64,000 nt of DNA from Candidatus Omnitrophota bacterium (GTDB lineage Bacteria > Omnitrophota > Gorgyraeia > 2-02-FULL-51-18), in assembly GCA_945877765.1 (NCBI GenBank), contig CAMDWQ010000004.1, forward strand, positions 44,558-108,557. The letters are read 5' to 3'. The notes below the pieces were generated by a model. It had not been told where the DNA came from and did not search any database. It was given only the letters and a program-made list of their open reading frames with translations. The first letter of the stretch is position 1, and each line of letters begins with the position of its first letter. Both the position numbers and the translations under genes were made by a program. This document shows positions 844-63,962 of this stretch, piece after piece.

Positions 844-844
844 A

Positions 845-2302: not shown

Positions 2303-2303
2303 C

Positions 2304-3725: not shown

Positions 3726-3732
3726 TCGCGTT

Positions 3733-4626: not shown

Positions 4627-4627
4627 T

Positions 4628-5809
4628 TTAATTGGCGCTCACCTGGAAAAGAAAACCTTTTAGATAATAGGTTTCCGGAATAGCCGGATCTATCGGATGA
4701 TCCATCCCTTGGGACATAAAACGCACTACTTTTAAATTTTTCTTTGTGTCTTGGGCCGCGCTTAACGCCACTTGCATCAGACGATTTTCATCCACGTGGT
4801 AAGAGCATGAAAACAAAGCCAACAATCCCCCTTCTTCAAGAATCTTCATCGCGCGCAGCGAGATTTCTTTAAAACCAGCCATGGCACCATCCAACTCATC
4901 CTTTTTTTTAACAAAAGACGGCGGGTCCAAAATAACCAAATCAAATTTTTCTTTCTTGGCATCAAGCTCTCTTAATTCCTCGAAAACATCCGCCTCCTTA
5001 AATCGTAGTTTTTCCTCCGGAATCCCATTGCGTTGGCGGTGAAGCGTGCCGCGAGCGAGATTGGCGGCTTTTATATCTATACCGGTTACATTTGCCCCGC
5101 CCTTGGCCAAATGAAGCCCAAAACCACCCTCATAACAAAAGGCATCGAGCACACGTCCTTGGATGCCCAGGTTTCGCAGCACCGTTCGGTTTTCCCTTTG
5201 ATCCAAATAAAAACCAGTCTTATGCCCCTCCCCAAATTCAACCAAATACTCAATATCCAATTCACGGACGATCACTTCATCACCGCAATTTTTTTCGATC
5301 CATCCCTTTTTTTCGGCAAGCCCCTCCAGGCGCCTGACTCCCGAATCGCTGCGTTCGTAAATTCCGCGCGAAGGAATAGCGGTTGAAAGGGCTTCTAATA
5401 CTATTGGTTTTAAATTTTCCATGCCAGCCGTCAAAAATTGGACAACCAGCACCTCCGAGTATAAATCCACGATCAATCCTGGCAAACCATCCGCCTCGCT
5501 TGAAATTACCCGAAAAGCATTGGTGTCGTGTATAAAACGGCGACGATAGGCGTAGGCCCTTTCAATCCTCCGGCGGAAATAATCCGAATCGATGGGGTCG
5601 GGGGCTGCGCTAAGTAAGCGCACGGCGATTTGCGAATTCGTGTTGCAATATCCTCGCCCCACATAACGCCCGCGCTCGGTCAATACATCCACCAGTGACC
5701 CGGGCGCGACTTGGACTCCGTTTAGCATCAGCTGGCTGGCGTAAATCCAGGGGTGGCCCGGGCGTAAAGTGCCTTTGGGTGCTCTTTGAAGAAATAATTG
5801 CGGGATCAC
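4628..5809 (-). CDS. rlmI: Class I SAM-dependent 23S rRNA (m5C) methyltransferase, RlmI-like (PUA domain + MTase)
   Basis: 393 aa. N-terminal PUA-like region followed by a Rossmann MTase. VLDAFCYEGGFG and DPPSF motifs. Confidence 0.75.
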   Translation of the reverse strand: MIPQLFLQRAPKGTLRPGHPWIYASQLMLNGVQVAPGSLVDVLTERGRYVGRGYCNTNSQIAVRLLSAAPDPIDSDYFRRRIERAYAYRRRFIHDTNAFRVISSEADGLPGLIVDLYSEVLVVQFLTAGMENLKPIVLEALSTAIPSRGIYERSDSGVRRLEGLAEKKGWIEKNCGDEVIVRELDIEYLVEFGEGHKTGFYLDQRENRTVLRNLGIQGRVLDAFCYEGGFGLHLAKGGANVTGIDIKAANLARGTLHRQRNGIPEEKLRFKEADVFEELRELDAKKEKFDLVILDPPSFVKKKDELDGAMAGFKEISLRAMKILEEGGLLALFSCSYHVDENRLMQVALSAAQDTKKNLKVVRFMSQGMDHPIDPAIPETYYLKGFLFQVSAN

Positions 5810-5815
5810 TTTAAA

Positions 5816-6331
5816 TTATAAACCTTTGGCTTTAAATTTGTGCTCAAAAGGGCGGTTAAAACCATGTGAGCGCGCGTCTTCCTTGTGAAGCGCCGCCTTA
5901 CTCTCTACTCCAGTTTCTTTTAGCATCTCAAGAAACTGTGAATTTTTCAAGACCCTGGCACCACCGCCCCGTGCCATCTCGGTAATCGTGCGATCATTAG
6001 TTACAACAACAAATGCTGTGATGGCCTTATTGTCATAGATAAATTTTTCAATATAGTGGTCGGCAGATACTTTTTGGGAGTAAACGGCTTGGAAATAAAT
6101 CGTGGTATGGACTTGGAGTTCCTCAGGATTACCCACCCCATCGAGGACCATACGGACTTTCGTTTTCTTAAAAGCAGCAAACCCAGCCAATACCGAACAC
6201 AGCACCTCTCGGCTAGGAGCCCCGCCAGAGACTAGCGACGGCGGGAGAAAGGGATACGAAACACCCCGCGATGACTTAATATCATGAATCAAATTATAAC
6301 CGTCAATTAGCCACTCTTCGCTCATCATCAT
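5816..6331 (-). CDS. NYN-domain protein, YacP/Rae1-like predicted RNase
   Basis: N-terminal LIDGYNLIH hallmark of the YacP-like NYN domain. 171 aa. Confidence 0.6.
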   Translation of the reverse strand: MMMSEEWLIDGYNLIHDIKSSRGVSYPFLPPSLVSGGAPSREVLCSVLAGFAAFKKTKVRMVLDGVGNPEELQVHTTIYFQAVYSQKVSADHYIEKFIYDNKAITAFVVVTNDRTITEMARGGGARVLKNSQFLEMLKETGVESKAALHKEDARSHGFNRPFEHKFKAKGL

Positions 6332-6359
6332 TAACGGCTATTATAACCTTCTACGGACT

Positions 6360-6584
6360 CTATCTCTCTTCCATTTGGCGAACTAAGTACGCGTCAAGAA
6401 GATCCTTCTTAGAGCGCCATCTTCCGCCGATCTTGAAACCTGGCAAGACACCCTTTTTAAGCCAGCGATAGACTGTCATTTCATGGACGCCCAAATACTT
6501 AGCTACTTCCTTGGTCGTCATGATCTGCGTTCTCTCAGGCCTTTTAAATTCCGGCTGCTTTGACTCCGATCCATTCATGTCCAT
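6360..6584 (-). CDS. Small helix-turn-helix DNA-binding protein (excisionase/MerR-like HTH_17 family)
   Basis: 74 aa. Carries TKEVAKYLGVHEMTVYRWLKKGVLPGFKIGGRWR. A close paralog sits at 7230..7445. Confidence 0.6.
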   Translation of the reverse strand: MDMNGSESKQPEFKRPERTQIMTTKEVAKYLGVHEMTVYRWLKKGVLPGFKIGGRWRSKKDLLDAYLVRQMEER

Positions 6585-6823
6585 ATTCCCACCTCTCCAG
6601 TTAACTCCTATTCACTATATTGGGAGTATAATGTAATAGTTAGTATTTGTCAACTTATTTAAGTAAAAATAATCAATACTATCAAATGAAGGGGTTAAAT
6701 ATTTCATAACTCATTGGAATTGATTGGGTTGCAGCTTCCTGGTACGTGTCGAAATTGTCGTAGAGTGTTTAGGGCTGCATGTATTTATTTGGAAAGAGGC
6801 TCTTGGGCGCCTCAAAAATCTAA

Positions 6824-7192
6824 CTAGTGCGTAAAGGCTTCTTCTACTTTTTGCCTTAAGCTCTCAAGAGATAGAGCGCCTTTTTCAAAAAAATGAAAGT
6901 AGCCCAAGCCGCGAAATTTTTCTTCCACCTCTTCTTCAAGGCAGCCAGACACCACAATCGCTCTGACGGCTGGGTCCATGCCTTGGAGAATAGGCAAAAA
7001 GCTATCGCCTGTCAAAATCGGCATATCAAAATCGAGAATTACCACGCGGTGAGAGTATTTTCTAAAAAGATTAACCGCATCTTCGACATTATTCGCGCAA
7101 TGTACATCATATCCCATCGCTTTGAAATACTCTGCAATCAGCTGGGAAAACCCCGGCTCATCATCGACGACAAGAATTTTCTTTGATGCCAT
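6824..7192 (-). CDS. Stand-alone response-regulator receiver (CheY-like REC only)
   Basis: KKILVVDDEP...VILDFDMP...AIVVSG receiver motifs. Start trimmed to MASKKIL; the ORF-track start at 7261 is an upstream TTG. No output domain. Confidence 0.75.
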   Translation of the reverse strand: MASKKILVVDDEPGFSQLIAEYFKAMGYDVHCANNVEDAVNLFRKYSHRVVILDFDMPILTGDSFLPILQGMDPAVRAIVVSGCLEEEVEEKFRGLGYFHFFEKGALSLESLRQKVEEAFTH

Positions 7193-7229
7193 GTAATTTT
7201 TTGAGCTCGCGCTTAGGCAATCAAACGTC

Positions 7230-7445
7230 TTACTTCTTTTTCGGCTCTGGGGCTCTATCAATCTCTTTCAGAAGGTAGTTATCCAAAACTTCTTTCTTTG
7301 TGCGCCACTGCCCCCCAACCTTAAAACCAGGAAGCTTCTTTTCCTTAAGCAGGCGATACACCGTCATCGAATGAACACCCAAATACTTTGCCACTTCTTT
7401 CAACGTCATGATCTGCGTCCGCTGCGGTCTCTTTTCTTCGGCCAT
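7230..7445 (-). CDS. Small HTH_17-family DNA-binding protein, paralog of 6360..6584
   Basis: 71 aa. RTQIMTLKEVAKYLGVHSMTVYRLLKEKKLPGFKVGGQWR is roughly 70% identical to the HTH core of the 6360..6584 protein. Confidence 0.6.
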   Translation of the reverse strand: MAEEKRPQRTQIMTLKEVAKYLGVHSMTVYRLLKEKKLPGFKVGGQWRTKKEVLDNYLLKEIDRAPEPKKK

Positions 7446-7565
7446 TTCTTTGCCCTTCTCTTTTTGTTAGACTGCCAATTTTTAAAACTCTTGATTTACA
7501 ATAATGGTATAGTACCACAATGTTTATACTATTTGCAATAATTTTTATCATCTATTAACAAAAAC

Positions 7566-8909
7566 TTACTGGGCTTCTTTTGGTGCCTCAGGAGGGGGTT
7601 CGGGGGCAGGTTTATCCAGTTTCTGGACAAATTCAAGAGCTTCGGTTCGACTAGAAATCCTTCTTTCCAGCTGAGCCTCTTCCAGCAACGTCAAAATTTT
7701 TCCAATCAATGGCCCTTGGGCGAAACCAAGCGCCATCACGTCTCGGCCGCTTAAAAATGGCACGGGTTTGATCTCTTCTTTAGAAAGAGTGCTTATCTTT
7801 TTCTTAAGGAAGCGCCAGTTGGCCAAATCCCCATGACTGGCCAGACAATCAATGCGATGCTGTTGAAGCTCCGTCTCAAATGTCGGGCGCTGCATAAATT
7901 TTTTAAGGGTGCTCTCCCGCATGACTCTCACATCCTTAAACCGCATATGCCCCTCGACGCAGGCAACCACTTTTTCTTTAAACTCATTAGAAAAACGAAG
8001 ACGCGTCAGGATGGCCTCGGTCATACGTGCCCCGACCGTATCATGTCCGTTAAAACGAATCCTATCCGCACGCTTGAATGTGGGGGGTTTCCCCACATCA
8101 TGCAAAAGGCATCCAAACGCCAGCACCGGCTCAGGTTTTTTAAGTTGTGCCAGCAAAAGCTTGGTGTGGCGAAAAACATCTCCCTCGGGGTGGTACTTCC
8201 GGGGCTGCTGCACGCCCTTCATACGATCCACTTCAGGCAGCACCTCTTTCAATAGTCCGCTTTTATCTAGCAAGGTCAAAGCCAGCGCAGGGTCAGGACC
8301 TGTAAACATTTTTACCAGCTCATCACGCACGCGTTCCTGGCTTACTTCATGAATTTTTTTGGCAAGCTGGCGTACCGCAGAAAATGTTTTCGCTTCGATT
8401 TTAAATCCCAGCACACTGGCAAAGCGCACAGCACGTAACATTCGAAGCTTGTCCTCGGTAAATCTTTTTTTGGGGTCTCCAATAGCGCGGATTATTTTTT
8501 TCTTAAGATCCTTTTGTCCTCCCACCCAATCAAGTACTTTTTTTGTGACGGGGTCATAAAAAAGACCATTAACGGTAAAATCACGGCGTATTGCATCCTC
8601 CTTAGCGTTGGTAAACTCCACGCTGGAAGGACGCCGGCCATCTTGATAGCCGTGGTCCGCGCGAAACGTCGCGATTTCAAAATTTTCCCCACCCTCGACA
8701 ACAATCATCACGCCAAACTGAGCTCCCACCGGAATCGTGCGCGGAAAGAGGGCTTTCACACGATCGGGCACCGCATCGGTAGCGATATCAAAATCTTTGG
8801 GGTTTTTCTTCAACAATAGATCGCGCACCGAACCGCCAACGAAATAAGCTTCGTGGCCATTCTGGCGCAGGGTTTGGATAATTTGAAGAGCTATGTTTTT
8901 TTTAGTCAT
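7566..8909 (-). CDS. cca: CCA-adding tRNA nucleotidyltransferase with HD domain
   Basis: N-terminal YFVGGSVRDLLL...DFDIAT PolyA_pol head. C-terminal HD region (LLHDVGK). Confidence 0.85.
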   Translation of the reverse strand: MTKKNIALQIIQTLRQNGHEAYFVGGSVRDLLLKKNPKDFDIATDAVPDRVKALFPRTIPVGAQFGVMIVVEGGENFEIATFRADHGYQDGRRPSSVEFTNAKEDAIRRDFTVNGLFYDPVTKKVLDWVGGQKDLKKKIIRAIGDPKKRFTEDKLRMLRAVRFASVLGFKIEAKTFSAVRQLAKKIHEVSQERVRDELVKMFTGPDPALALTLLDKSGLLKEVLPEVDRMKGVQQPRKYHPEGDVFRHTKLLLAQLKKPEPVLAFGCLLHDVGKPPTFKRADRIRFNGHDTVGARMTEAILTRLRFSNEFKEKVVACVEGHMRFKDVRVMRESTLKKFMQRPTFETELQQHRIDCLASHGDLANWRFLKKKISTLSKEEIKPVPFLSGRDVMALGFAQGPLIGKILTLLEEAQLERRISSRTEALEFVQKLDKPAPEPPPEAPKEAQ

Positions 8910-8923
8910 CGTTTAAATAAATT

Positions 8924-8952
8924 AGGGGCGGCCCAGATCGTGGACCGCCCCT
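8924..8952 (-). terminator. Hairpin downstream of the peroxiredoxin gene (candidate intrinsic terminator)
   Basis: AGGGGCGGCC / GACCGCCCCT stem. On the minus strand it is followed by the U-rich stretch AAUUUAUUU. Confidence 0.4.
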
Positions 8953-8973
8953 AAAAATCAGGAACTCAAGCGA

Positions 8974-9513
8974 TTAAAGCGTCTTTTCGCCCGGTTTCCA
9001 TTCGCAGCCCGTATTTTTCCCGGTCTGAAAAGCTTGGATCGTGCGAAGCGTTTCATCGACACTTCTTCCGGCTGAGAGGTCATTCACAACCGCCGACTTC
9101 AAGATGCCGTCCGGATTGATGATAAACGTTCCGCGAAGCGAAATGCCCTTGTCCTCGATCAAAACATTGAAAGAACGCGCCACGCGGTGATTGGTATCCG
9201 CAAGGATCGGAAATTGGATCTTCCCCAGACTTGATTCCGTCCAGGCTTTGTGTGAATAAACGCTGTCCGTGCTGGCCGCGATGACTTCGACACCGAGTTT
9301 GTTGAATTGGTCCAAATGCTTGTTAAAACCCTGAATCTCTGTTGGGCACACAAATGTGAAATCAAGCGGGTAGAAAAATAAAACCACCCATTTGCCTTTG
9401 TAATCAGCAAGCTTTACTTCCTTAAAACTTCCGTCGCCCATGAGCGCCTGGCATGAAAAATCAGGGGCCTTTTTACCAACTTGCAATGCACTGCATTCCG
9501 CTGTTGCTGACAT
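8974..9513 (-). CDS. Peroxiredoxin (2-Cys Prx/AhpC family)
   Basis: FTFVCPTEI peroxidatic-cysteine motif. 179 aa. Confidence 0.85.
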   Translation of the reverse strand: MSATAECSALQVGKKAPDFSCQALMGDGSFKEVKLADYKGKWVVLFFYPLDFTFVCPTEIQGFNKHLDQFNKLGVEVIAASTDSVYSHKAWTESSLGKIQFPILADTNHRVARSFNVLIEDKGISLRGTFIINPDGILKSAVVNDLSAGRSVDETLRTIQAFQTGKNTGCEWKPGEKTL

Positions 9514-9625
9514 AAATCACTTCCTCCTTGTTGTGAAAAATTGAAGCCCTTCAACCAAGCGTTCTGAGGGCGAATAGGACATGATTTTACAACTCCCTCT
9601 TAAGCGAGTCAATTTCAATGTCATT

Positions 9626-9681
9626 CTCGAACGATCCTCGAACGATCCTCGAACGTGCTCGAATGTCCTCGAATGTCATCT
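9626..9681. repeat. Degenerate tandem repeat, period 10-11 bp, about 5 units (TCGAACGATCC-like)
   Basis: tcgaacgatcc tcgaacgatcc tcgaacgtgc tcgaatgtcc tcgaatgtcatc, read directly from the sequence. Confidence 0.6.
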
Positions 9682-9711
9682 CTAATACCATCTCTTCATA
9701 TCACCCCCAGT

Positions 9712-9781
9712 GTCATCCCCGAAATTATTTATCGGGGATCATACCTAAGTTTGATTCCCGATAAAAACTTTCGGGAATGAC
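9712..9781 (-). repeat. MITE-like double-hairpin intergenic element, family 1, copy A (reverse orientation)
   Basis: GTCATCCCCGA-N9-TCGGGGAT ... ATTCCCGA-N9-TCGGGAATGAC. Its reverse complement aligns with copies at 18375, 40424 and 22734. Confidence 0.65.
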
Positions 9782-9803
9782 GTGGGGTGGATGACACTGA
9801 CCA

Positions 9804-10733
9804 CTAAAACCTTCTAATTTTGACCCTCTTTAAGAGTGCGGGGATGTCCGACCGCAGACACAGACGCGGAGCCTCTCTCATCACCGTCGAAGTACTGGCC
9901 GCGACTCCTAGGGCCGCCGCTTTTTCCAGGCTCATTTTTCGATAAAGCCCCAAAGCGAGCCCTCCCAAAAGCGAGTCTCCTGCTCCCACCTTACTTTTAA
10001 CCGGCACAGAGATTCCAAGGATCTGAAAAGCCTCATTTTTAGATACAAATAGCGCTCCTTCTGCCCCCAAAGAGACGACAACGATGCGGATGCCGCTACT
10101 CACAAGGCTTACCGCCGCGCGACGATAATCCGCGACCTTGGTCAGTTTTTGACCAACAAGCCTTTGCACCTCAAATTCGTTGGGCTTGATGATACAGGGG
10201 CCGGCCTTAACGGCATGACGTAAATACTCATTATCCGCATCAAGAATACAGGGTGTGCCCGCTGTTTGAAGAGCCGCAACGTATCGCTGGTAGATAGTTG
10301 GGTCCATGCCACGCGATGGATTCCCGCCGATGACCCAAAACGAGGGCCTGGGGCGGACATGAAGAAGCTTTTGCAAAAAAAGACGCTGGTCTTTTTCCGA
10401 AATTACCGGCCCCGGTGCACTCACGCGTGTCTGCGTGCTATCCTGGATATCCGTGAAGACCGTATTAATGCGTGTCTCGCCCGCCACCCGATACGCCGTG
10501 AAAGCAACGTCCAGCTTGGCAAGCTCACTGGCCCAAAATTTTCCCATCAATCCCGCCTGCAATGCATAGGCGCGCGTCGGCCCTCCCAATTCGCGAACTA
10601 CTCGTGAAACATTGGCTCCCTTTCCACCAGCATGGATACTCACCGAAATAGCCCTGTTGGTGTCATCCTTCAATAAATGCGGTACTACCAAGTGTTGATC
10701 AATCGACGGGTTTAATGTGATCGTTGCAATCAT
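9804..10733 (-). CDS. PfkB-family carbohydrate kinase (1-phosphofructokinase/tagatose-6-P kinase-like)
   Basis: 309 aa. N-terminal TLNPSIDQ, GGKGANV, and a C-terminal GAGDS-like motif. Confidence 0.75.
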   Translation of the reverse strand: MIATITLNPSIDQHLVVPHLLKDDTNRAISVSIHAGGKGANVSRVVRELGGPTRAYALQAGLMGKFWASELAKLDVAFTAYRVAGETRINTVFTDIQDSTQTRVSAPGPVISEKDQRLFLQKLLHVRPRPSFWVIGGNPSRGMDPTIYQRYVAALQTAGTPCILDADNEYLRHAVKAGPCIIKPNEFEVQRLVGQKLTKVADYRRAAVSLVSSGIRIVVVSLGAEGALFVSKNEAFQILGISVPVKSKVGAGDSLLGGLALGLYRKMSLEKAAALGVAASTSTVMREAPRLCLRSDIPALLKRVKIRRF

Positions 10734-48106: not shown

Positions 48107-48935
48107 AAGTTAAGATTGCCTGATAATCTCCCGGAGCTAGACGCCCAACCCATTCTGTTTTTCCGGTTTCGGTCTGTCCTGGGAAAGTGTATATCTTATT
48201 TAAATCTCCGCGAGCGCGAACCCTACCATCCTTATCCATAATCAAAAAATTTCCGCCGAGTGTGACATCTACATTGCCGCTATTGAAAAAAGTGGACGAT
48301 ATCTGAAGCGGTTGATTGCCTTCGGAGGGCTTGATTTCAACTAACTTGATTTGCCCATTTTTTTCAGAAAATCCCTTGGTTTCGACGTAAAACAAACTGC
48401 CAATGCGCCCCGCGACTAGGACGTTGACCCCCTCCTCATCTTGGGCAGTACCAAGAATGGTTTCAAAGAAAAGGACAGCATAATGACCGCCCTTTGCATC
48501 ACTGGGGACTGCGATGGTATAGCGGACTACTGTCTTACCAAAAGGACCAATGGTTTCTTCAGCGGGTGAAAAAGTGATCCATTTCCCAGCCGAAAAAGGC
48601 GTGGATGCGATCGGTGAAAATATTTTTTCTCCCGTACCGCCTGGGGCATAGACCCAATCTTCCAAATACACTCTTACCTTGATGCTTTCTTCTGTTGGGT
48701 TTTCTGCTGTAATCTCGCCTGTATAAGTCTCACCCGGAGCAACCTCTACCTCCACCTTGGGGGCACTGATTCTGATAGTAGCAGCCTGCGAATCTACCGT
48801 GAAGGAAAACAAAACCAGTAGGGCAACAAAACCTGTCACCATCAATCTCTTAATCAAGTCGCAGCTCCTTAAGGAAACCAATAAAGAAAATAAAATAAAC
48901 AAAATCATCGTAGCAGACGAAAATAGATGTGTCAA
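48051..48935 (-). CDS. Periplasmic PapD-like pilus chaperone candidate (two Ig-like domains)
   Basis: Signal peptide. IRISAPKVEVEV...IKVRVYLEDW...ITFSPAEETIGPFGKTVVRY...HYAVLFFETI parallels the PapD N-domain strand pattern. Pattern-level only. Confidence 0.4.
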   Translation of the reverse strand: MTHLFSSATMILFILFSLLVSLRSCDLIKRLMVTGFVALLVLFSFTVDSQAATIRISAPKVEVEVAPGETYTGEITAENPTEESIKVRVYLEDWVYAPGGTGEKIFSPIASTPFSAGKWITFSPAEETIGPFGKTVVRYTIAVPSDAKGGHYAVLFFETILGTAQDEEGVNVLVAGRIGSLFYVETKGFSEKNGQIKLVEIKPSEGNQPLQISSTFFNSGNVDVTLGGNFLIMDKDGRVRARGDLNKIYTFPGQTETGKTEWVGRLAPGDYQAILTYDLGKGKTIVEEKSLTAL

Positions 48936-48994
48936 TTGACAACTTCCTATTTAGGATAAACAGAACCCGGGGTGGGCGTGATTAGAGAAAAAAA

Positions 48995-49029
48995 CTCCCC
49001 AAAAAAACCGTGTAGGTTTTTTTGGGGAG
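48995..49029 (-). terminator. Perfect 15-bp-stem hairpin with a U-rich stem just after the stop of the 242-aa SCPU-like gene
   Basis: CTCCCCAAAAAAACC-gtgta-GGTTTTTTTGGGGAG. Confidence 0.5.
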
Positions 49030-49043
49030 CTTGCAAAACTTAA

Positions 49044-50777: not shown

Positions 50778-52205
50778 CTATACAGTCGTAAGGGAATATT
50801 TAACGATCGTACTAAATGGCCCCGCTTTAGGTGATTCAGAAGTTTTTAAAGCATAGGTCAAAATAAATTTTTCCGGAGCGCCTCGCGGATTAGAGGTATA
50901 TACAACCTCCGAGCCCTCCCTCACGGCTACTGGGGATAAGTTGGCTAATGTCCCCGTCTGGGCCTCGGACCCGAAATAAGTAAAATTTTGCGGCGGAAGA
51001 GCATGTCCTTGGGGACTTGTGATCTTATTAGAAACGATCTGAACCACCTGGTAAGGTTCATTCAAGTTGCTGTGCACCTTCACAGTCACCGTCTTTTCAC
51101 GCACTTCGTTGGCGTTCTTGAAGACGCCAAAACTCACCTTAGTCACTTCTGGCAGCTCTATATCCAAATAAAAAATAGGCTCCACTTCTAGCTGGATCGG
51201 AATAATCACGGGCTGTAAGGGTGTGTTTTGTGCGGCGGAGTCAACTTTTAACTTAACGGTTCCGCTATAAATACCGGCTTTTTGAGTGGAGTCCGGTGAG
51301 GCTATATATTTTAAAGCGAAACTATCGCTAAGACCTGAATCACTAACATAAACTCGTTCTGAATTGCTCGGTACGGAAACGGGAGAATTCTTCGCCGTCA
51401 AAACACCCTTATCGCCTCCCAAAGCGACTAATTTTAAATCAGCTTCATTGATGATTTGACCGTCTTGAGAAGTCAGGGGTTCTGCCATCTCCTGAAAAAT
51501 TGTATAGGCGGCGCTATTACTTTCTACAACAACGGACAATGTGTCGTCAGCCACCAGGCGATCCCTGGAAATACGACCCAAATCTATTTGACGAAGGCCT
51601 CTGGAGTTTTGGATATTCAAACTGAATGTGGGGCGGACATTGACCACCACATTTAAAATAACGGTACTTTGCGAAACTCCCGGCTGTGAGCTGACTGGTT
51701 GAGCGATCAATTTCAACATCGTCCGGTACAAGCCTCCCGGTTGACCTTCAGGAATCATGATGTTAAACACCAAAACAAACGTGTCTGTATCTCCAGCACC
51801 ATTGGAGGTGTAAATGGGTGTCCGGCCCATCAGAACAGGGGTCTCCTGCTGAGTTTTGAGCGTACCCAACGAAGAGGAGGGGGAAAAAACAATCAAAGAC
51901 CTCTGAGGAATCATAGCACCCGTTTCATTGGTCAGAGGTTGATTCATCTCTTGATAAATGGTGTATTGGGTGGTGACCGTACTCGTCATCGTAATCGTGA
52001 CTTCTTCATTTCTTGCATAAGAGCCGGGCTTGACATCATCAAAACGGATACCGTGAGTTTCTCTCGTCGGTGTTGCATTTAATAGAAATACCGCGTGCGC
52101 CTCGCAGGGAACCCCTAAAAACAACCCCACAAGAATGACCCGCACAAAGAAATCTCTGCTAAATAACTTCACCGAAATCTCCATTCTTTGAGTGTTAGAA
52201 CTCAC
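50778..52205 (-). CDS. Secreted protein with three tandem SCPU-like domains
   Basis: Three roughly 120-aa repeats. Each starts (Y)TI(Y/F)QEM..PLT... and ends ..PGGLYRTMLKLI / ..KAGIYSGTVKLKV / ..KAGPFSTIVKYSLTTV. Confidence 0.55.
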   Translation of the reverse strand: MSSNTQRMEISVKLFSRDFFVRVILVGLFLGVPCEAHAVFLLNATPTRETHGIRFDDVKPGSYARNEEVTITMTSTVTTQYTIYQEMNQPLTNETGAMIPQRSLIVFSPSSSLGTLKTQQETPVLMGRTPIYTSNGAGDTDTFVLVFNIMIPEGQPGGLYRTMLKLIAQPVSSQPGVSQSTVILNVVVNVRPTFSLNIQNSRGLRQIDLGRISRDRLVADDTLSVVVESNSAAYTIFQEMAEPLTSQDGQIINEADLKLVALGGDKGVLTAKNSPVSVPSNSERVYVSDSGLSDSFALKYIASPDSTQKAGIYSGTVKLKVDSAAQNTPLQPVIIPIQLEVEPIFYLDIELPEVTKVSFGVFKNANEVREKTVTVKVHSNLNEPYQVVQIVSNKITSPQGHALPPQNFTYFGSEAQTGTLANLSPVAVREGSEVVYTSNPRGAPEKFILTYALKTSESPKAGPFSTIVKYSLTTV

Positions 52206-56887: not shown

Positions 56888-58195
56888 CTATTTTCTAGGC
56901 TCCCTTTTCTTAGACGGCGCTGGCTCCTGCTTGCGCGTCCAGAGATCTTTCAGAACCCAATAAGCTTCTTTGGGAATTCGCTCATTGATGCCGCTTTTTT
57001 TATTTTTTGGACCTTGGCCTACCACGCCCCACCACTCCTCATTCATATTCATGGAGTCGACACCCTTGGCGTCGGAATAATACGAAGCGTTGTGCCAGTG
57101 GCCCGCGGTGTCGTGAACAGACCATGTATGAGGAAGATTTTCATTCCCTTTCCACCATTCGTCCATCCATTCAAAAATCACCCCTCCCAAGCAGTTGCCC
57201 ACCCCTTTTTTGCCGCTGGTGTTTCTTTCGATGTCCTGCCACTGATACTTCAAAAAATCCGCCTGACTGGCTTCATCGGGTTCTTGGGTAGAGGCGTTGA
57301 AGCTATCCGCGCCCCACTCCGTCATCATCACGGGAATATCAAATTTTTGCTTGATCTGACGAAAAAGGTTGCCAAAACCAGACCCCCGGTAAGCAATCAT
57401 CGCCAGGACGTCGATATCCGGGCAAACCGGCTTTGCCAGATCCAGACTGGACACTTCGCCCACACCCATGGACACCGGATGTTTTGGGTCAATTTTTTTG
57501 ATCTCCTTGGCCAGATCATTCACAAAAGAATAATAGATTTTTGCTTTTTGACGCCGCTGTTCTTGGGGGTCCTCAATTTTATCAATCTCGTCGCTGGTCC
57601 AGCGCTGAACGTTTAAATCAAAGCTGTAGTTATTTTCATTCCCCAAAACCCACATCAACACGCCCGGATGATCCTTGTAGACACGCACCATTTCCAATAC
57701 CTCGTCACGAATCTTTTGTCGAAATTCCTCATCCGTATAATTAGGGGCGGGCCAATTCCAAAAACCAAGATAATGCCCCACTAAAAAATAGATCCCATGC
57801 CGGTAGTGAAGGTCATCAAAAACCTCTTTGACTTCACGCGGATTTTTACCCAAGCGGTAAAAACGAACCGTATTCACGCCCATTTCTTTCATCAACTTTC
57901 CATCGGTAAGCCAGGGCTTGGCTGGATCTCCCCAAAAATTGTACTCGTAATCTTTGCCAATGGGCACAGGGGAATAACAAACACCGCGAATCATAAACGG
58001 TTTGCCATTCACTAAAAGTTTATCGCCGTCCGCCGGGCTTCGCTGGATCTTGATATCCGGAACTTGTTTGGATCGGAAATATTGACTACCGTAATAGAAA
58101 ATAAAAAGGGCGGCGCAAACCGCTATCGTCAAAACTAAAATCGAGGTTGTTTTTTTCAAAAAAAATCCCTTAAGTAAAAAAGACAGCGATAGCAA
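56888..58195 (-). CDS. Membrane-anchored clan GH-A (GH2/GH5-like TIM barrel) glycoside hydrolase
   Basis: N-terminal TM anchor. LLVNGKPFMIRGVCY (GH2-type barrel entry). VLGNENNY candidate acid/base. MTEWGADS candidate nucleophile. Confidence 0.6.
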   Translation of the reverse strand: MLSLSFLLKGFFLKKTTSILVLTIAVCAALFIFYYGSQYFRSKQVPDIKIQRSPADGDKLLVNGKPFMIRGVCYSPVPIGKDYEYNFWGDPAKPWLTDGKLMKEMGVNTVRFYRLGKNPREVKEVFDDLHYRHGIYFLVGHYLGFWNWPAPNYTDEEFRQKIRDEVLEMVRVYKDHPGVLMWVLGNENNYSFDLNVQRWTSDEIDKIEDPQEQRRQKAKIYYSFVNDLAKEIKKIDPKHPVSMGVGEVSSLDLAKPVCPDIDVLAMIAYRGSGFGNLFRQIKQKFDIPVMMTEWGADSFNASTQEPDEASQADFLKYQWQDIERNTSGKKGVGNCLGGVIFEWMDEWWKGNENLPHTWSVHDTAGHWHNASYYSDAKGVDSMNMNEEWWGVVGQGPKNKKSGINERIPKEAYWVLKDLWTRKQEPAPSKKREPRK

Positions 58196-58242
58196 AACAA
58201 AGAAAAATCTCTTTAATTTGCTATCGCTGTCTTATGATTCAA

Positions 58243-58836
58243 TTATTCGAACTTAATATCGTCAATGTAAAACGTAGCGCCTTCCGGATTCACATCCAGA
58301 TTGGTCGCCCAGCAAAATCCGCCGCTGATTGAGGAAAGATCTTTTCCGCTCAAATCAATGGTGAACTGCTGCCATTCGGTCGTCAGGACCACGGGTCCAA
58401 TGCCGGCCACATCCGAATCGGCGTACTCGCCGGTGATGCCGCCAATCTTGAACTCCTCAATCCTCTCACCGCCCTTTTCACCGCGAACCCAAAAAGTCAG
58501 CTTCGTAGCGCCGGTAAGATCATAACCGCCGGGCCTGGTTCCCCAATTGTTTGGGGGATTCTGCCAATAGATACCCGCCCAACGCGCACCTTGAGTCGCC
58601 TTATTGGTATAGATAAACTGCACCGACGTACTGCCGCCGTGTGGATTGGTCAGATACTTATCGTTCATCTTGATATCACCATAATCCCCCATCCAGCCCG
58701 AGGGAATGTAATGATTGTCTGGAGATTTGGCATCCGTATATACAGGGAAAGTTTTAAAAACACCTTCCGCTGCATAAGCAACCGCGCCAAAGCTGACAAA
58801 CGCCGCTAACACTAGCACGAGCAACTTTGCTTTCAT
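58243..58836 (-). CDS. Secreted carbohydrate-binding-module-like (galactose-binding-like beta-sandwich) protein
   Basis: Signal peptide. Aromatic-rich beta-sandwich pattern. C-terminal FYIDDIKFE typical of CBM ends. Confidence 0.45.
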   Translation of the reverse strand: MKAKLLVLVLAAFVSFGAVAYAAEGVFKTFPVYTDAKSPDNHYIPSGWMGDYGDIKMNDKYLTNPHGGSTSVQFIYTNKATQGARWAGIYWQNPPNNWGTRPGGYDLTGATKLTFWVRGEKGGERIEEFKIGGITGEYADSDVAGIGPVVLTTEWQQFTIDLSGKDLSSISGGFCWATNLDVNPEGATFYIDDIKFE

Positions 58837-58929
58837 ATTTCCTCCTTATTCGTGATTGTAATCCTAAAATAAACCAGACCTCAGTAGCAACCTGATTTCT
58901 AGATTTATTCAACCGTTCCCTAAATTACT

Positions 58930-60930
58930 TTATTTCTCGTTCCAAACTTTCTTAAAATAATGATATGACTTTCGCAGCTGTCTTAAGTACGGAGATTGAC
59001 TGCCGTCCCCTTGGCTAGCCACGCCAAGCCACTCTTCGTGCATCCATCCATCCGGAAAAGCGGCGGCAAAATCACCGATGGTTTCATGATCCGAAGGACT
59101 AAACTTTGGCGGAAGGCCTGATTTCCACCATTCATCGACATATTCAAAAAGAACGCCGCCAATCGCATTGCCTAGGCCAGAACCGGCGGAATTGTAAACC
59201 ATATCCTCCCAATTGCCGCGATGATACTCCATCTGCTTTTCTTCAGCGTAGTCCTGATCCTTGCCGCTAACATACGCAGGACAGCCAAATTCGGTAAAAA
59301 GGGCCGGCTTGTCCATCCAGTGACGCACATCAGACCAAAACGAGCGCCCAAATCCAAAAGACCCGCGATAAACATTGGAGCCAAAAATATCGATATTACT
59401 GCTGTTTTGGCTCAAAATATCGATGGTTACGACTTCTCCGTTGGAGAAACCCACCGGCCTCGTAGGGTCCAGCGATTTTATCATGCCGGCAACTTGATTG
59501 ACAAACTCATAATGCGCTTGGGGCTGTTTTTTGGCATTGCTTCCCAAACCGGCTTTATTGGACTTAGGATCCGGATCTCCCACCTCCCCATAATTGGACT
59601 CGTTGCCGAGCATCCACATCAGGACATAAGGCTCGTCTTTGTATTCTTCTATCATTTTTTTGACGCTGTTAATCATGTTTTCTTTATGTTTTGGATTTGT
59701 ATAATCCGTACCTTCATACCAACCGGCGCCGCTTCCCGCCGCATACATCCCTAACATATCGCCCATGATGACGTTGATTCCATAGTCTTTGTAGAGTTCT
59801 CTCATGAGCTCTTTGTTTCCGGCGTGATGATAAAGGCGGATCGTGTTGACACCCATTTCTTTCATCAGCTGGAAATCACCCACCACCGGCTCATCGGCAT
59901 CCTGTTGGTTATTTTTATTTTTATCGACCCAAGCGTCGTAGGGTCCGTCAGCTTTTCCGTTTTTGTTAAGATCCGCGCTCATCCAATCGTTGTTGGGATC
60001 AAAATTACCCTCGTTGGGAGAGCGGCCGATCGGTGACGGGGCATACGCAATCGCCTTGACCATAAACGGCTTGCCGTCGACACGCAGCTGCCAGTGTTGA
60101 TTTTCAAATTTGACCAACTGGGCACGTCCTGTGCCTACGGTTTTGATAATTTTAAGCTTTGTAATGTCCACGCGTTTTGACTTTAGCTCAGAGGGATTGA
60201 CCTTGACGAGCTTGCCGGGATTGACAAAATAGAGGTCATCGTTGGTATCAAAATTGAAGCCATTTTCAATCCTGATTTCCGCGCCGCTCAGTTGGATGCC
60301 AAGCTCCGGATGTTTGCGTGTCAAATAATCAACACGGTCATGCGCCAACCGTGACATGTAAAGCGGTGTATGCCAAAAACTCCATCCCACCTGGCGGGGA
60401 AAATGCACAAGAATCGCGTGATAGGCCTTGATGGCCTGCGCTGTCTGTCCCAACTTCTCAAGCGAGAGTGCTGTATAAAATTGCTGTACCGCTGGTGTGT
60501 CGCTGGTCGTTGCCCATTTATAAAATGCCAGCTGCTGGTCATCCCGATTGACATAATCCCAGGCGCTTCCCCTTAACTTGCCCCGAGTAACCAGTAGGCG
60601 AAAAACCGGATCTTTGAAAACGGAGACATTAGGGTAAACACCTTCTCCCACCGCCGCCGCAAGACTTTTACGTTGCGTCATCTTGTAAGCGTACTTATCC
60701 GTACCCAGGCCTTCAAAAGTTCCGTATTTTTCATAATCAATAAAAGTTTCACTGCCGGGATCAAAAAGTTTAAACTCTACTTCCATTTGCTCGCCGTGAG
60801 AATTCATCACTTGGGTGCCGGATTCAGCGGCTACAACGGATGGTTTTTTTGAGACTTCGGAGGCAAAAGCAGGGACTTGTAAAAGAATAAATAAAGCCAG
60901 CACAAACGTTCCAAATTTGATGCGAATCAT
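58930..60930 (-). CDS. Secreted clan GH-A TIM-barrel glycoside hydrolase paralog with about 290-aa N-terminal extension
   Basis: LRVDGKPFMVKAIAY, WMLGNESNY and LFTEFGCPA parallel the 435-aa paralog. Confidence 0.6.
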   Translation of the reverse strand: MIRIKFGTFVLALFILLQVPAFASEVSKKPSVVAAESGTQVMNSHGEQMEVEFKLFDPGSETFIDYEKYGTFEGLGTDKYAYKMTQRKSLAAAVGEGVYPNVSVFKDPVFRLLVTRGKLRGSAWDYVNRDDQQLAFYKWATTSDTPAVQQFYTALSLEKLGQTAQAIKAYHAILVHFPRQVGWSFWHTPLYMSRLAHDRVDYLTRKHPELGIQLSGAEIRIENGFNFDTNDDLYFVNPGKLVKVNPSELKSKRVDITKLKIIKTVGTGRAQLVKFENQHWQLRVDGKPFMVKAIAYAPSPIGRSPNEGNFDPNNDWMSADLNKNGKADGPYDAWVDKNKNNQQDADEPVVGDFQLMKEMGVNTIRLYHHAGNKELMRELYKDYGINVIMGDMLGMYAAGSGAGWYEGTDYTNPKHKENMINSVKKMIEEYKDEPYVLMWMLGNESNYGEVGDPDPKSNKAGLGSNAKKQPQAHYEFVNQVAGMIKSLDPTRPVGFSNGEVVTIDILSQNSSNIDIFGSNVYRGSFGFGRSFWSDVRHWMDKPALFTEFGCPAYVSGKDQDYAEEKQMEYHRGNWEDMVYNSAGSGLGNAIGGVLFEYVDEWWKSGLPPKFSPSDHETIGDFAAAFPDGWMHEEWLGVASQGDGSQSPYLRQLRKSYHYFKKVWNEK

Positions 60931-60934
60931 GGAT

Positions 60935-61795
60935 TTAACCTTTGACTGCTCCAGCGGTGATACCCTTAATTATATGCTTTTGTAGCAAAAGGTAAACAAC
61001 TAAAACGGGAAGCACGGTAATCACAATCCCGGCCATGAGCAGCGGATACTGTGTGATATGAGCCCCTTGAAATACCATAAGGCCTCTTTGAAGCGGCATA
61101 AGTTGTTTGGATGAAAGGACTAACATCGCAAGGAGGTATTCATTCCACACCGCCAAAATATTAAAAATGGCTAGCACTGCCAGCGCCGGTCGTGCCAGGG
61201 GAAGAGCAATGTGCCAGTAAATACGAAAGCGGCCGCACCCATCAATCGCAGCGGAATCCTCAAGTTCTTTTGGAAGATCATCAAAAAAAGTTTTTAATAA
61301 AAAAATGCCTAACGCCAGGCCGCCGTTTATTTGGGGCAAAATATAGCCCAACTGGTGGTCGACTAAGTGCAATTTATTTAGCAGAACGTAGAGCGCGATA
61401 AACGATCCGGGAATCGGAATCATCATCGTCGAAATAAGAATCAAGAATAAAACATTTTTTCCATAAAATTGAAGTCTTGAAAAAGCATAGGCCGCCATGG
61501 AGGCAACGAAGAGCACTCCTACCACAACCACCACGGTATAAAAAAGGCTGTTTAAAAAATAAATGCTAAAATCCGCTTTTGCCCAAGCGTAATAGTAATT
61601 TTCCCACTGAGGGTTTTTAGGAAATAAGCTTAAATCGTTGAAAACAGTTTGTTGGGTTTTGAGGCTGGAGGCAAACGCCCACCAAAGAGGAAAAAGACAG
61701 CTAAGGGATACAATCGCAAGGAAGCAGTGGATAAAAAAACTAATGGTGCCTTTTTTTACTTTTTCATAATTGACTTCCATCATTCCTGCCCTCAT
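60935..61795 (-). CDS. Carbohydrate ABC transporter permease (MalG/UgpE-like)
   Basis: EAA-like loop. Six TM helices. 286 aa. Confidence 0.85.
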   Translation of the reverse strand: MRAGMMEVNYEKVKKGTISFFIHCFLAIVSLSCLFPLWWAFASSLKTQQTVFNDLSLFPKNPQWENYYYAWAKADFSIYFLNSLFYTVVVVVGVLFVASMAAYAFSRLQFYGKNVLFLILISTMMIPIPGSFIALYVLLNKLHLVDHQLGYILPQINGGLALGIFLLKTFFDDLPKELEDSAAIDGCGRFRIYWHIALPLARPALAVLAIFNILAVWNEYLLAMLVLSSKQLMPLQRGLMVFQGAHITQYPLLMAGIVITVLPVLVVYLLLQKHIIKGITAGAVKG

Positions 61796-62682
61796 CAGAC
61801 CTGCCTCATCATTTTAGAAACACGAATCTGAATCATGGAAATAGCCAGTAGAATCAAGCCAAAAACCACACCCATCGCGCACGCATAACCAAATTTGGAC
61901 GATCCGATCATCATGGCGACGATGCGCGTGATAGGAACCTCCGTGTGATAACCGGGACCGCCTCCCGTCGTTGAAATGATAATATCGAAAATTTGCATCG
62001 TCCCGAGAATGGTCAAAATAGAAACAAGAATAAACACGGGGATCATGAGCGGCGCTGTGATTCGCTTGAAAACAATCCACGAGTTGGCACCGTCCACACG
62101 CGCCGCCTCATAAAGTTCACGCGGAATACTCTGAAGCCCCGCCAGAAGAATTACAAATCCCCAGCCAAAACCTTTCCACATATGGATTACGGACACAGAA
62201 ATAAGTGCTGTCTGGGGGTCAGAAAGCCAGGCGCGCGTGAGATTGCCAAGCCCAATAAAAGTCAGAAAATGATTTAACAGGCCGTAATTTCCGTCGTAAA
62301 TCCAGTTCCATATAAGACCCACTACAATTCCCGAAAGCACTGGGGGTAGATAAAAAATGACACGGTAAACATTTCCTCCCCGTATATCACGGTCACACAA
62401 AAAAGCCAGAAGCAGTGCCAAGGAATTTTGAACCACCAATGCCAAGAAAGTCACATAAAACGCATTTTTCATTGAATGCCAAAAAACAGGGTTGTCCATC
62501 AAGAGATCTTTAAAGTTGTCCAACCCAACAAAAGGCGCTACCGGGGAGATACCATCCCACGAAGTGGTCGAAAGCTGAAAAACCTTGAAAAAAGGATACG
62601 CTGAAAAAATAATAAAAAAAAGAAACGCGGGAAGGATAAATAGATAGCCGCCCAGGAGCGTTCGAATTTTTTGAAAATTCAT
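61795..62682 (-). CDS. Carbohydrate ABC transporter permease (MalF/UgpA-like)
   Basis: 295 aa. Overlaps the downstream permease by 1 nt. Confidence 0.85.
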   Translation of the reverse strand: MNFQKIRTLLGGYLFILPAFLFFIIFSAYPFFKVFQLSTTSWDGISPVAPFVGLDNFKDLLMDNPVFWHSMKNAFYVTFLALVVQNSLALLLAFLCDRDIRGGNVYRVIFYLPPVLSGIVVGLIWNWIYDGNYGLLNHFLTFIGLGNLTRAWLSDPQTALISVSVIHMWKGFGWGFVILLAGLQSIPRELYEAARVDGANSWIVFKRITAPLMIPVFILVSILTILGTMQIFDIIISTTGGGPGYHTEVPITRIVAMMIGSSKFGYACAMGVVFGLILLAISMIQIRVSKMMRQV

Positions 62683-62726
62683 GAAAAAGTCCTAATGGCG
62701 CACCCTTTTGTTTTGGGTCTTAAAGC

Positions 62727-63962
62727 TTATTTAGCGTTTTTAGCCAGTTCTTTTTCTTTGGTCTTTTGAACGTTCTGAGCCACTTCATCGGGAGTCTTTT
62801 CCCCGATCAGGATGGACTGAATACCTTTATTAAAGGCCTCGGTGACTTCCGGATACTCGTGCACAGGATACACATTGGGATGTGTTGCATTATCCATGTC
62901 GTCGGCAAACCCGGACAAAATCGGCGATATATGCTGCAAGCTAGCTTTGACGGAGGGTAGATTTTCCGTCGCTTGAGACAAATAGGACTGCTGTTTTTCA
63001 GCGGTAAGCCAGCGTAAAAATGTGACTGCCCCGTCGCGTCGCGGAGATCCGTTGTTCACCACCAATGAGCCGCCTGCTCCGCCCCACACTCTGATAGGGT
63101 AAGCGCTTGAAACGGCTGGCGGCGGAATCGGCGCATATTCCAAACCAGGATTCATCCCTTTGTAAACATTCACGCACCAGGAACCGTTGAACGCATAAGT
63201 CGCGCGCTCATTGGCAAACGTCTGCTCGGCCGTTTTGTTAACCATGGTGACTGCGCCTTCTACCAAAATCTTCTCATCAGCCATCTGCTTAAATAAGGAC
63301 AATACCTTAATCCAATCCGGATCGTTATAGGAAACCTTGCCTTCGTAGGTAGCAAAAACTTTTTTCTCACCCATGATGTTCATCGCCCAGTTAGAAGCAA
63401 GCGCATCAATCATCCAGATTTCGCCGAAACCCGAAACAAAACCAGGAAGACCGCTTTTTTTGAGCGCGCGATTATGCTCGATAAACTCATCCCAGGTACG
63501 AGGAGGATTGTTGGGATCCAATCCCGCTTTCGCATAAAGTTTTTTATTGTAAACCATCTGAATCGTGCTGGCATCCAGCGGGATTCCATAAATACCCGGC
63601 TCAATACCAAATTCATTACCCTGAGCAAATTCGTTAACCGCCAAAGCCTTTGCAAAAAAAGAATTTTTCCATACATCAGTCTCGTTTCCGAGCTTGGCGC
63701 TAAGCTCCTCGTTTAAATTTTTGACATAGCCGGAGCGGATAAAGCTGGCAAAATCTCTTTTTTCTCCGAGAATTCCATAAATATCAGGAAGCGTGCCGGT
63801 CTGCGCGGAAGCCTTCACCCTTTGGGCATAAGCTTCGGAGGGAGCGAAAAGCTCAAGCTTCACCTTCACTTGAGTCTCATTTTCAAAACGATTGACTAGT
63901 TCATTCAAGGCATCCTCACGGTCGGACATCCAATGCCACACCGTGATGCTCTTCGAATTCAA
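62727..63962 (-). CDS. Extracellular solute-binding protein, family 1 (sugar ABC importer)
   Basis: 411 aa SBP_bac_1-like. Aromatic-rich. Confidence 0.8.
   Translation of the reverse strand: MNSKSITVWHWMSDREDALNELVNRFENETQVKVKLELFAPSEAYAQRVKASAQTGTLPDIYGILGEKRDFASFIRSGYVKNLNEELSAKLGNETDVWKNSFFAKALAVNEFAQGNEFGIEPGIYGIPLDASTIQMVYNKKLYAKAGLDPNNPPRTWDEFIEHNRALKKSGLPGFVSGFGEIWMIDALASNWAMNIMGEKKVFATYEGKVSYNDPDWIKVLSLFKQMADEKILVEGAVTMVNKTAEQTFANERATYAFNGSWCVNVYKGMNPGLEYAPIPPPAVSSAYPIRVWGGAGGSLVVNNGSPRRDGAVTFLRWLTAEKQQSYLSQATENLPSVKASLQHISPILSGFADDMDNATHPNVYPVHEYPEVTEAFNKGIQSILIGEKTPDEVAQNVQKTKEKELAKNAK

Follow-up and report, generated by a model that had tools for sequence, protein, structure and literature searches.

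Most of what is known of chaperone-usher pili, a textbook case of an assembly machine, comes from Proteobacteria. In a stretch of 64,000 nucleotides from Candidatus Omnitrophota bacterium (assembly GCA_945877765.1, contig CAMDWQ010000004.1, positions 44,558 to 108,557), here called the window and numbered from its first letter, a reverse-strand gene encodes a protein of three tandem homologous domains, each of about 135 amino acids. This triple-domain gene and its product are called T. With a probability of roughly 0.6, T is the acceptor-only subunit that forms the tip of, or initiates, a highly divergent pilus of the chaperone-usher type, made of three fused copies of a pilin; for this protein we infer donor-strand exchange, a location at the tip and a part in adhesion. 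A wider claim is put forward more tentatively: that Omnitrophota possess a deep-branching, unrecognised chaperone-usher-like pathway, the pilin module of which is a remote homologue of the C-domain of Pam pilins, and the tip of which consists of three pre-polymerised pilin domains.

The three-fold repeat had been pointed out in an earlier reading made from the letters of the window (the sequence-only reading), and it is detected by all three methods applied. When the open reading frame (ORF) is cut into three, the pieces match each other in BLASTP with 25-29% identity (E 9e-11 to 6e-15) over nearly their full length. Smith-Waterman scores are 104-128, compared with 27-31 +/- 5 in 1000 shuffles (z 16-17), and the sensitive profile comparison, hhalign with family profiles, gives probabilities of 99.7-99.9% (E 5e-27 to 6e-32). 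The three motifs quoted earlier as domain ends, GGLYRTMLKLI, AGIYSGTVKLKV and AGPFSTIVKYSLTTV, are indeed in the sequence, and in an alignment they coincide as the final strand of the three domains.

A model of T was built with AlphaFold2 (AF2) on 45 homologues, with strands assigned by DSSP; its mean predicted local distance difference test score (pLDDT) is 91 and its predicted template modelling score 0.69. In the order of the protein the domains are called D1, D2 and D3, and their mean major-residue frequencies among the homologues are 0.66, 0.49 and 0.56. D1 and D2 each have an A' strand, and each is followed by a linker with a strand at the position of strand G. These linkers alternate strictly between hydrophobic and polar positions across the 45 homologues, with V-L-V-V-I in linker 1 and I-V-I-I in linker 2, where polar or proline residues stand between the hydrophobic ones. 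D3 is modelled with neither an A' strand nor a strand G. No strand is modelled in its segment 343-351, which corresponds to the second strand of D1 and D2, and this fits a missing pairing partner. At the other end of the protein, the mature N-terminus (AHA/VFLLNATP) is strand A itself, and there is no N-terminal donor extension: F29 aligns with F183 and F334, the residues after the 'xP' hinge of each linker, and the signal peptide stands where the extension would be. Every one of the 45 homologues begins at strand A directly after AxA and ends directly after strand F (...YSITTL). A mature N-terminus at strand A, with no donor extension, is the signature of a tip subunit, and an end at strand F is the acceptor-type end of chaperone-usher pilins; T has both, as two-domain tip adhesins do, which lack a donor extension and carry a C-terminal pilin domain ending at F. 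The tally for T is three acceptor-type domains and two donor-type strands, both of them internal. Taken together, the DSSP patterns, the homology and the fold match suggest that each linker strand completes, in cis, the domain before it (D1 or D2), and that D3 is left with an open acceptor groove. According to the sequence-only reading, a complete strand G in each domain would have argued against donor-strand exchange of the pilin type. The domains differ in this respect: in D1 and D2 a strand at the G position is supplied in cis by the linker, and in D3 there is none.

The donor N-terminal extension that T lacks is found in three pilin-like proteins of 174, 222 and 214 amino acids encoded in the same cluster, and in the linkers of T. 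The 174-aa pilin is the closest relative of every T domain (tblastn E 1e-7 to 1e-17; hhalign probability 99.3-99.9%). It has a donor-like N-terminus (TAAVSTSAKIN) followed by strand A, and ends at strand F. Slices of T consisting of a linker and the domain after it align with this pilin from its mature N-terminus onward, both in hhalign and in MAFFT, and therefore the linkers are the counterparts of the pilin's N-terminal extension. The two other pilins belong to the same superfamily as the T domains and the 174-aa pilin (hhalign probability 92-98%). The 222-aa protein, which matches the T domains with 93-96% and the 174-aa family with 97.9%, has a signal peptide, a Gly-rich stretch and a donor-like strand (VFEGNF-DP-TLGITIVL), and ends at strand F (GTYNATVTFTITE). 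The 214-aa protein has the donor-like N-terminus APVSATVVASFSL and the C-terminal end VYTSTYTLTLTA. The layout of these free pilins is a signal peptide, a short stretch rich in Ser, Thr and Ala, a strand of alternating hydrophobic residues, a two-residue turn and strand A, with the end of the protein after a G-x-Y...strand-F motif; judged from sequence, this is the anatomy of a donor-strand-exchange pilin.

The gene of the 214-aa pilin has a promoter-like site on its 5' side and a strong hairpin on its 3' side (-33 kcal/mol, z -7.65), and its product is a candidate for the major subunit. Equally strong hairpins of unrelated sequence are found at the same position in four of the related loci described below, L001 (~10411), L005 (~12431), L006 (~12393) and L008 (~10260). 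Stem-loops after the gene of the major subunit are typical of the pap and fim operons, and the hairpin may be an attenuator that sets the stoichiometry between pilin and assembly factors.

When the model of T is compared with the PDB by Foldseek, the best match is 3f85, 'fusion complex of homo trimeric major pilin subunits CfaB' (E 2.8e-15). CfaE-CfaB and CfaB-CfaB fusions come next, and CfaE, the CupB6 tip adhesin and SafDAA-dsc follow lower down amid generic tandem proteins of immunoglobulin-like (Ig-like) domains. The entries 3f85 (CfaB3), 3f83 (CfaE-CfaB) and 3f84 (CfaB2) belong to CFA/I, a class 5 system of the alternate chaperone-usher kind, and are constructs engineered so that the donor strand of one subunit completes, in cis, the subunit ahead of it in the chain. 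They resemble T in that pilin-type Ig-like domains are completed by a following strand of the same chain. CfaE is a tip subunit without donor extension, as T would be, and both of its domains are Ig-like. There are also clear differences, as CfaB3 is a laboratory construct with a final donor strand, whereas T is natural and ends without one, and CfaE has two dissimilar domains where T has three that are clearly homologous. Identity between the CFA/I proteins and T is 12-14%, and no relation was detected at the level of sequence. Another likeness is to the tip fibrillum of the FimH-FimG-FimF and PapG-PapF-PapE-PapK type, which is a short multi-domain stalk starting with an acceptor-only subunit. 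In those systems the stalk consists of several polypeptides joined non-covalently by donor-strand exchange, whereas in T the three domains form one polypeptide. Tip adhesins of the FimH, PapG, CfaE and CsuE type have two domains, with a distinct N-terminal receptor-binding domain, while T has three that are all homologous to pilins.

The mechanism proposed from this is the following. In the cluster's pilus, every free pilin's N-terminal extension would complete the Ig-like fold left unfinished in the subunit before it. T would have arisen when the system's own pilin was triplicated head to tail and the first donor strand was lost. The extensions of copies 2 and 3 would have become the inter-domain linkers that complete D1 and D2 in cis, and that of copy 1 would be gone, with the signal peptide cleaved directly before strand A. 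With three acceptor domains and two internal strands, T would accept one donor strand and could donate none. In the periplasm, D3 would be capped by a chaperone-like protein of 268 amino acids encoded in the cluster, until one of the free pilins (222, 214 or 174 aa) completes it with its extension at an usher-like barrel protein of 974 amino acids. As T could not join an existing fibre, it would end up at the fibre's distal end as a genetically pre-assembled tip stalk of three domains, with D1 as the likely binding end because it is the most conserved domain. A PapH-like role as terminator was considered for T and rejected, as T has no donor strand with which it could join a fibre.

The two assembly factors in this scheme are candidates of different standing. 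For the 974-aa protein, Pfam finds a PF13629 domain at the N-terminus and SdrD_B and CarboxypepD_reg domains at the C-terminus. Its AF2 model (pLDDT 83) consists of a beta domain at the N-terminus, a barrel with about 26 strands and, at the C-terminus, three beta-sandwich domains; in Foldseek its best eight matches in the PDB are all to the usher FimD, with E from 3.7e-19 to 1e-16, and PapC comes next. The likeness to the FimC/FimD and PapD/PapC systems lies in these fold matches. PF13629 is of the type that stands at the N-terminus of Tad-pilus secretins, and its combination with an usher-like barrel and SdrD_B and CarboxypepD_reg domains does not occur among the PDB matches of the protein. 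The 268-aa protein has a signal peptide and no C-terminal membrane helix. The best PDB sequence match of its ortholog profile is the fimbrial chaperone EcpB (5dfk), a weak match over 67 residues (E 0.0067) that covers the stretch VAGRIGSLFYV with an invariant Arg; the assignment as chaperone is a lead. The gene order T, pilin, chaperone-like, usher-like is conserved in the related loci, on the shorter contigs as far as these extend, and counts in favour of the proposed reading.

Several results weigh against it. The pairing of the linker strands with the domains before them rests on DSSP patterns, homology and the fold match. D3 is modelled confidently without any donor strand (pLDDT about 86-96), and could be a stable six-strand sandwich. 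The barrel of the 974-aa protein has about 26 strands, against 24 in an usher, and no insertion of the size of a plug, its N-domain (PF13629) differs from that of the Fim and Pap ushers, TM-scores are 0.3-0.5, and hhalign found no sequence similarity to FimD or EcpC, so the protein is called usher-like, which is short of an usher. The evidence for the chaperone is weak, with an hhalign probability of 30% to EcpB beside the E-value already given. Finally, the Pfam models Usher, PapD and Fimbrial reach threshold nowhere in the cluster.

By family comparison T falls between the known systems. Pfam gave no SCPU, Fimbrial, PapD or Usher match in T, its neighbours or the 45 family members, and PDB sequence searches with profiles of the T family and of the single-domain family found nothing meaningful. 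Curated models give a consistent signal on the T family in one case, NF058581 (NCBIfam, CPR_Pam_pilin_C), which matches T with E 3.6e-7 and 30.4 bits, below its cut-off of 55 bits, and 36 of the 45 members at E<=0.01 (best E 2.7e-11), likewise below the cut-off. At the level of sequence this indicates remote homology between the T family and the C-domain of Pam pilins, and not membership. For the 174-aa pilin family (23 sequences) the most frequent Pfam match is DUF4402 (PF14352), itself uncharacterised, in 17 of 23 with a best E of 1.9e-4, all below the gathering threshold; Fimbrial matches two (best E 5.6e-5). A specific relation to the Ecp or Fim systems, including the large tip adhesin EcpD, was rejected at the sequence level: when the family profiles were compared by hhalign with EcpA-E and FimA, FimC, FimD, FimF, FimG, FimH and FimI of E. 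coli, no match was significant, the one exception noted being the 268-aa protein with EcpB at a probability of 30%. Altogether T reaches the threshold of none of the families compared; it is nearest to the Pam pilin C-domain and DUF4402 by sequence, and to the CFA/I subunits by structure.

Pam pili (PamA, PamB, PamT) come from bacteria of the Candidate Phyla Radiation (CPR), and the acceptor domain and the strand-less tip are features that they share with what is proposed for T. A Pam pilin is built from a nine-strand N-domain, a linker that it donates and just one C-domain, a truncated Ig-like acceptor that is completed by a strand from the next subunit; PamT, a strand-less single-domain pilin, is proposed, by the reasoning applied here to T, to sit at the tip; the chaperones are membrane-anchored, and there is neither an outer membrane nor an usher (bioRxiv 10.64898/2026.03.03.709456). 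No Pam homologues outside CPR were reported there. The Omnitrophota cluster differs in having three acceptor-domain repeats, a chaperone candidate of the soluble type and an usher-like barrel.

The Pam system suggests another explanation, in which T polymerises with itself into the shaft of a fibre by donating an inter-domain linker in trans. Pam pilins do donate the linker between their two domains, and the matches to the Pam C model would suit such a fibre. A homopolymer of T would always have one empty groove, as there are three acceptor domains and two linker strands, and the linkers are short connections of hairpin length after strand F. In addition, the cluster encodes free pilins that have true N-terminal extensions, and the gene of one has a promoter-like site and a terminator hairpin to itself, as a major subunit would be expected to have; all of this leaves self-polymerisation rather improbable. 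Marginally less probable again is a tethered stalk without any pilus, in which D3 is completed by a strand of the putative 873-aa outer-membrane protein (OMP) encoded upstream and T is thereby anchored to the barrel. The OMP and T genes are adjacent (22 nt apart) in nine related loci, and the N-terminal region of the OMP is long and probably disordered; this region is also variable and poorly conserved, and the most distant related locus, L003, retains T, pilin and chaperone-like genes with no 873-aa OMP gene beside T. An apparent in-frame fusion of OMP and T in L007 (2879-2979) was rejected, as it consists of a stretch of N, from either a scaffold gap or masking.

A broader alternative gives up donor-strand exchange altogether and sees T as a stand-alone secreted or surface protein of three Ig-like domains, for instance a matrix protein, an adhesin or a carbohydrate-binding protein tied to the glycoside hydrolase, ABC transporter and PilZ genes nearby, with D3 stable as it is. 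The confident model of D3 without a partner agrees with this, and Foldseek also finds many generic tandem-Ig proteins such as antigen I/II and integrins for T. The cluster lies among genes of sugar metabolism, and 26 of the 45 family members have faint matches to the GH123 N-terminal beta-sandwich model. We consider it unlikely, though the likeliest of the alternatives, since the T domains are homologous to small neighbours that have donor-like N-termini and also end at strand F, a conserved usher-like barrel is encoded nearby, and the loss of strand G and A' is confined to D3.

The family label of the sequence-only reading has fared worst. SCPU (spore coat protein U) pili are the archaic sigma-fimbrial or Csu type (CsuA/B, CsuE), in which donor-strand-exchange pilins are combined with a two-domain tip subunit, and T had been described as three SCPU-like domains followed by another SCPU gene. 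T would share with this type the general principle, and it has the general C-terminal G-x-Y...strand motif. The SCPU model PF05229 is silent up to E=1 in T, in the five downstream neighbour ORFs (232, 242, 294, 974 and 184 aa) and in the 45 family members; its one faint match (E 0.16) is in a single sequence of the 23 in the single-domain alignment. DUF4402, Fimbrial and the Pam C model all outscore it. The top 50 fold matches of T in the PDB contain no Csu structure. That T is an SCPU protein is thus very improbable, and neither are the neighbouring genes SCPU genes by Pfam; the T family is a conserved, uncharacterised family. The other half of the earlier suggestion, in which the protein is a tip or adhesin module assembled in advance, or else a subunit complementing itself, has held up better and agrees with the linker strands of D1 and D2, the missing strand G of D3, the lack of an N-terminal donor and the fold match to the CfaB trimer.

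Although no Pfam model of a pilus component passes its threshold here, the logic of donor-strand exchange is legible in the sequences, in the donor extensions of the free pilins, in a subunit that only accepts and in a barrel like that of an usher. If the proposed reading of T as a fused tip subunit is true, the chaperone-usher pathway reaches into Omnitrophota, a phylum known mainly from metagenomes. T would then be a natural case of covalently pre-assembled pilin domains, and would shed light on the evolution of tip fibrillae and two-domain adhesins through duplication and the loss of a donor strand. The Pam pilins of CPR would gain relatives outside that group. On the wider claim, T would be a counterpart of the engineered fusions with donor-strand complementation in cis, the usher systems of the outer membrane and the usher-less Pam system would join one evolutionary series, and it would follow that one polypeptide can encode the tip fibrillum of a pilus. 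What appears to be new is a covalent chain of three pilin-type domains as a fixed and widely conserved architecture, and the apparent presence of Pam-related modules next to an usher-like barrel outside CPR. In the paper library searched, nothing relevant turned up on Omnitrophota together with chaperone-usher or usher, on DUF4402 or on tip adhesins of three domains. Taken as a whole, the finding hangs together and the annotation is testable, with a mechanism that rests on prediction.

The gene itself is shorter than it was first taken to be. The ORF at 50778-52205 on the reverse strand is real, and gives the 475 amino acids of the sequence-only reading when it is read from the farthest GTG. 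Most likely, T starts at GTG 52172 and has 464 amino acids, because a GGAG sits 6 nt 5' of this codon, the homologues are nearly all 455-502 aa long (two are shorter and probably partial), and both an identical database protein and the gene call in assembly GCA_947444795.1 have 464 aa. Residues of T are numbered from this start. The spacer from the stop codon of the upstream OMP gene is therefore most likely 22 nt, where an overlap of 11 nt had been claimed. The gene after T, that of the 222-aa pilin, is called with this length and has a GAGG 5 nt 5' of ATG 50740, which most likely makes the second gap 37 nt and not 7 nt. The details that had been read as translational coupling are products of taking maximal ORFs. 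In the signal peptide of T, A25 and A27 are nearly invariant among the 45 homologues and residues 6-20 are modelled as a helix. A lipoprotein signal was rejected, as the Cys before AHA is neither conserved nor part of a lipobox. The features of the cluster are collected in the table.

Table. Coordinates of T, its parts and the neighbouring genes in the window (residue numbering as in the text; D1 to D3, domains of T).
Feature	Position	Strand	Basis and remarks
PilZ-domain protein, 648 aa	54936..56882	-	PF07238, E 6e-11; head of cluster
Putative outer-membrane protein, 873 aa	52195..54816	-	Directly upstream of T; ends ...SLTGEF
T gene	50778..52172	-	464 aa from GTG 52172; GGAG, identical database protein, assembly gene call
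T signal peptide	52092..52172	-	Residues 1-27, A-x-A site CEAHA/VF; conservation of A25 and A27, helix 6-20 in model
T domain 1 (D1)	51693..52091	-	Residues 28-160, strands A to F; DSSP, conservation, F29 alignment
D1 strands	residues 29-35, 41-47, 52-64, 70-76, 93-96, 116-122, 130-139, 147-159		Linker strand after: 169-179
T linker 1	51630..51692	-	Strand 169-179 (STVILNVVVNV), strand-G position of D1
T domain 2 (D2)	51234..51629	-	Residues 182-313, strands A to F
D2 strands	residues 183-189, 196-201, 208-219, 223-235, 246-252, 272-277, 281-291, 300-312		Linker strand after: 322-330
T linker 2	51177..51233	-	Strand 322-330 (PVIIPIQLE), strand-G position of D2
T domain 3 (D3)	50781..51176	-	Residues 333-464, strands A to F, stop codon directly after F
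D3 strands	residues 334-339, 357-368, 374-380, 397-402, 420-426, 434-443, 457-463		Strand after: none (stop codon)
Free pilin-like subunit, 222 aa	50072..50740	-	hhalign, sequence, start site
Free pilin-like subunit, 214 aa	49044..49688	-	hhalign probability 92-97%, sequence
Terminator/attenuator-like hairpin	48992..49032	-	18 bp then U run, directly 3' of 214-aa pilin gene
Candidate periplasmic chaperone, 268 aa as called	48051..48857	-	Ortholog profile against PDB, synteny
Usher-like outer-membrane protein, 974 aa	45182..48106	-	Pfam PF13629 N-domain, AF2, Foldseek
Free single-domain pilin, 174 aa	44644..45168	+	tblastn/blastp, hhalign, alignment
Small secreted protein, ~100 aa mature	44197..44568	+	Sequence; orthologues in L005 and L006

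The T family extends well beyond this genome. At E<=1e-3 the profile of the T domains finds 530 clusters (at 50% identity) among 1.84 billion representatives, and for these metagenomic clusters, so far 'hypothetical', the reading of T offers a working annotation. Among the best 150 of the 530, exactly three matched stretches are present in 134, with lengths of ~350-540 aa (mostly 440-500), one stretch in 13 (mostly ~175 aa), two in three, of which two are ~290 aa and probably fragments, and more than three in none. Members with names are from metagenome-assembled genomes of Candidatus Omnitrophica, and a few are labelled Eisenbacteria or 'uncultured Planctomycetia'. A search for related loci with a 14-sequence subset of the 45-member alignment returned eight.

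The gene order is kept in ten further contigs with 41-51% identity, not all of which span the whole cluster. It runs from glycoside hydrolases and the PilZ protein (with a GH116 gene in some) through the 873-aa OMP, T, one or two pilins and the 268-aa and 974-aa proteins to small pilin genes on the opposite strand, the 1118-aa protein and gltX. In L003, the most distant locus (28% identity), PilZ, T, pilin and the 268-aa protein are retained as far as the contig extends; here a small PilZ gene (9461-9808) adjoins the T gene. Upstream of these two genes, the same contig (JALOCE010000017.1, Omnitrophica) has a gene call of 6692 residues (1-9338) with GGDEF, phosphomannomutase, CBM48/alpha-amylase, PAP2 and other domains; this call represents a giant protein of many domains or else an artefact of gene prediction.

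The 648-aa protein at the head of the cluster in the window combines its PilZ domain with a membrane segment, a coiled coil and faint, sub-threshold glycosidase-like matches at the C-terminus. The presence of a PilZ gene suggests control of the system by c-di-GMP. The 873-aa OMP has no relative in Pfam, NCBIfam or PDB sequence searches, and as a second barrel beside the usher-like one it is unusual for a chaperone-usher cluster. In several relatives the GH116 gene is inserted between the genes of these two proteins. Further upstream, at 56888-63962 on the reverse strand, lie two genes for GH2-type TIM-barrel hydrolases, a gene for a conserved 197-aa protein and a sugar ABC transporter (a binding protein and two permeases). 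Related genomes have the hydrolase genes and the 197-aa gene in synteny, the latter duplicated in some of them; the transporter lies beyond the flanks that were compared.

At the other end of the cluster, the small secreted protein on the forward strand has an N-terminus of the donor-like kind (SVSVRISCTI), and its C-terminus, KLYSITAL, is similar to the end of the T family (KYSITTL); going by these two ends, this might be a truncated pilin that serves as adaptor or terminator. The 1118-aa protein (40501-43857, reverse strand), for which Pfam gave no match, is conserved with 56-71% identity in every long related contig, where its gene separates the pilus cluster from gltX.

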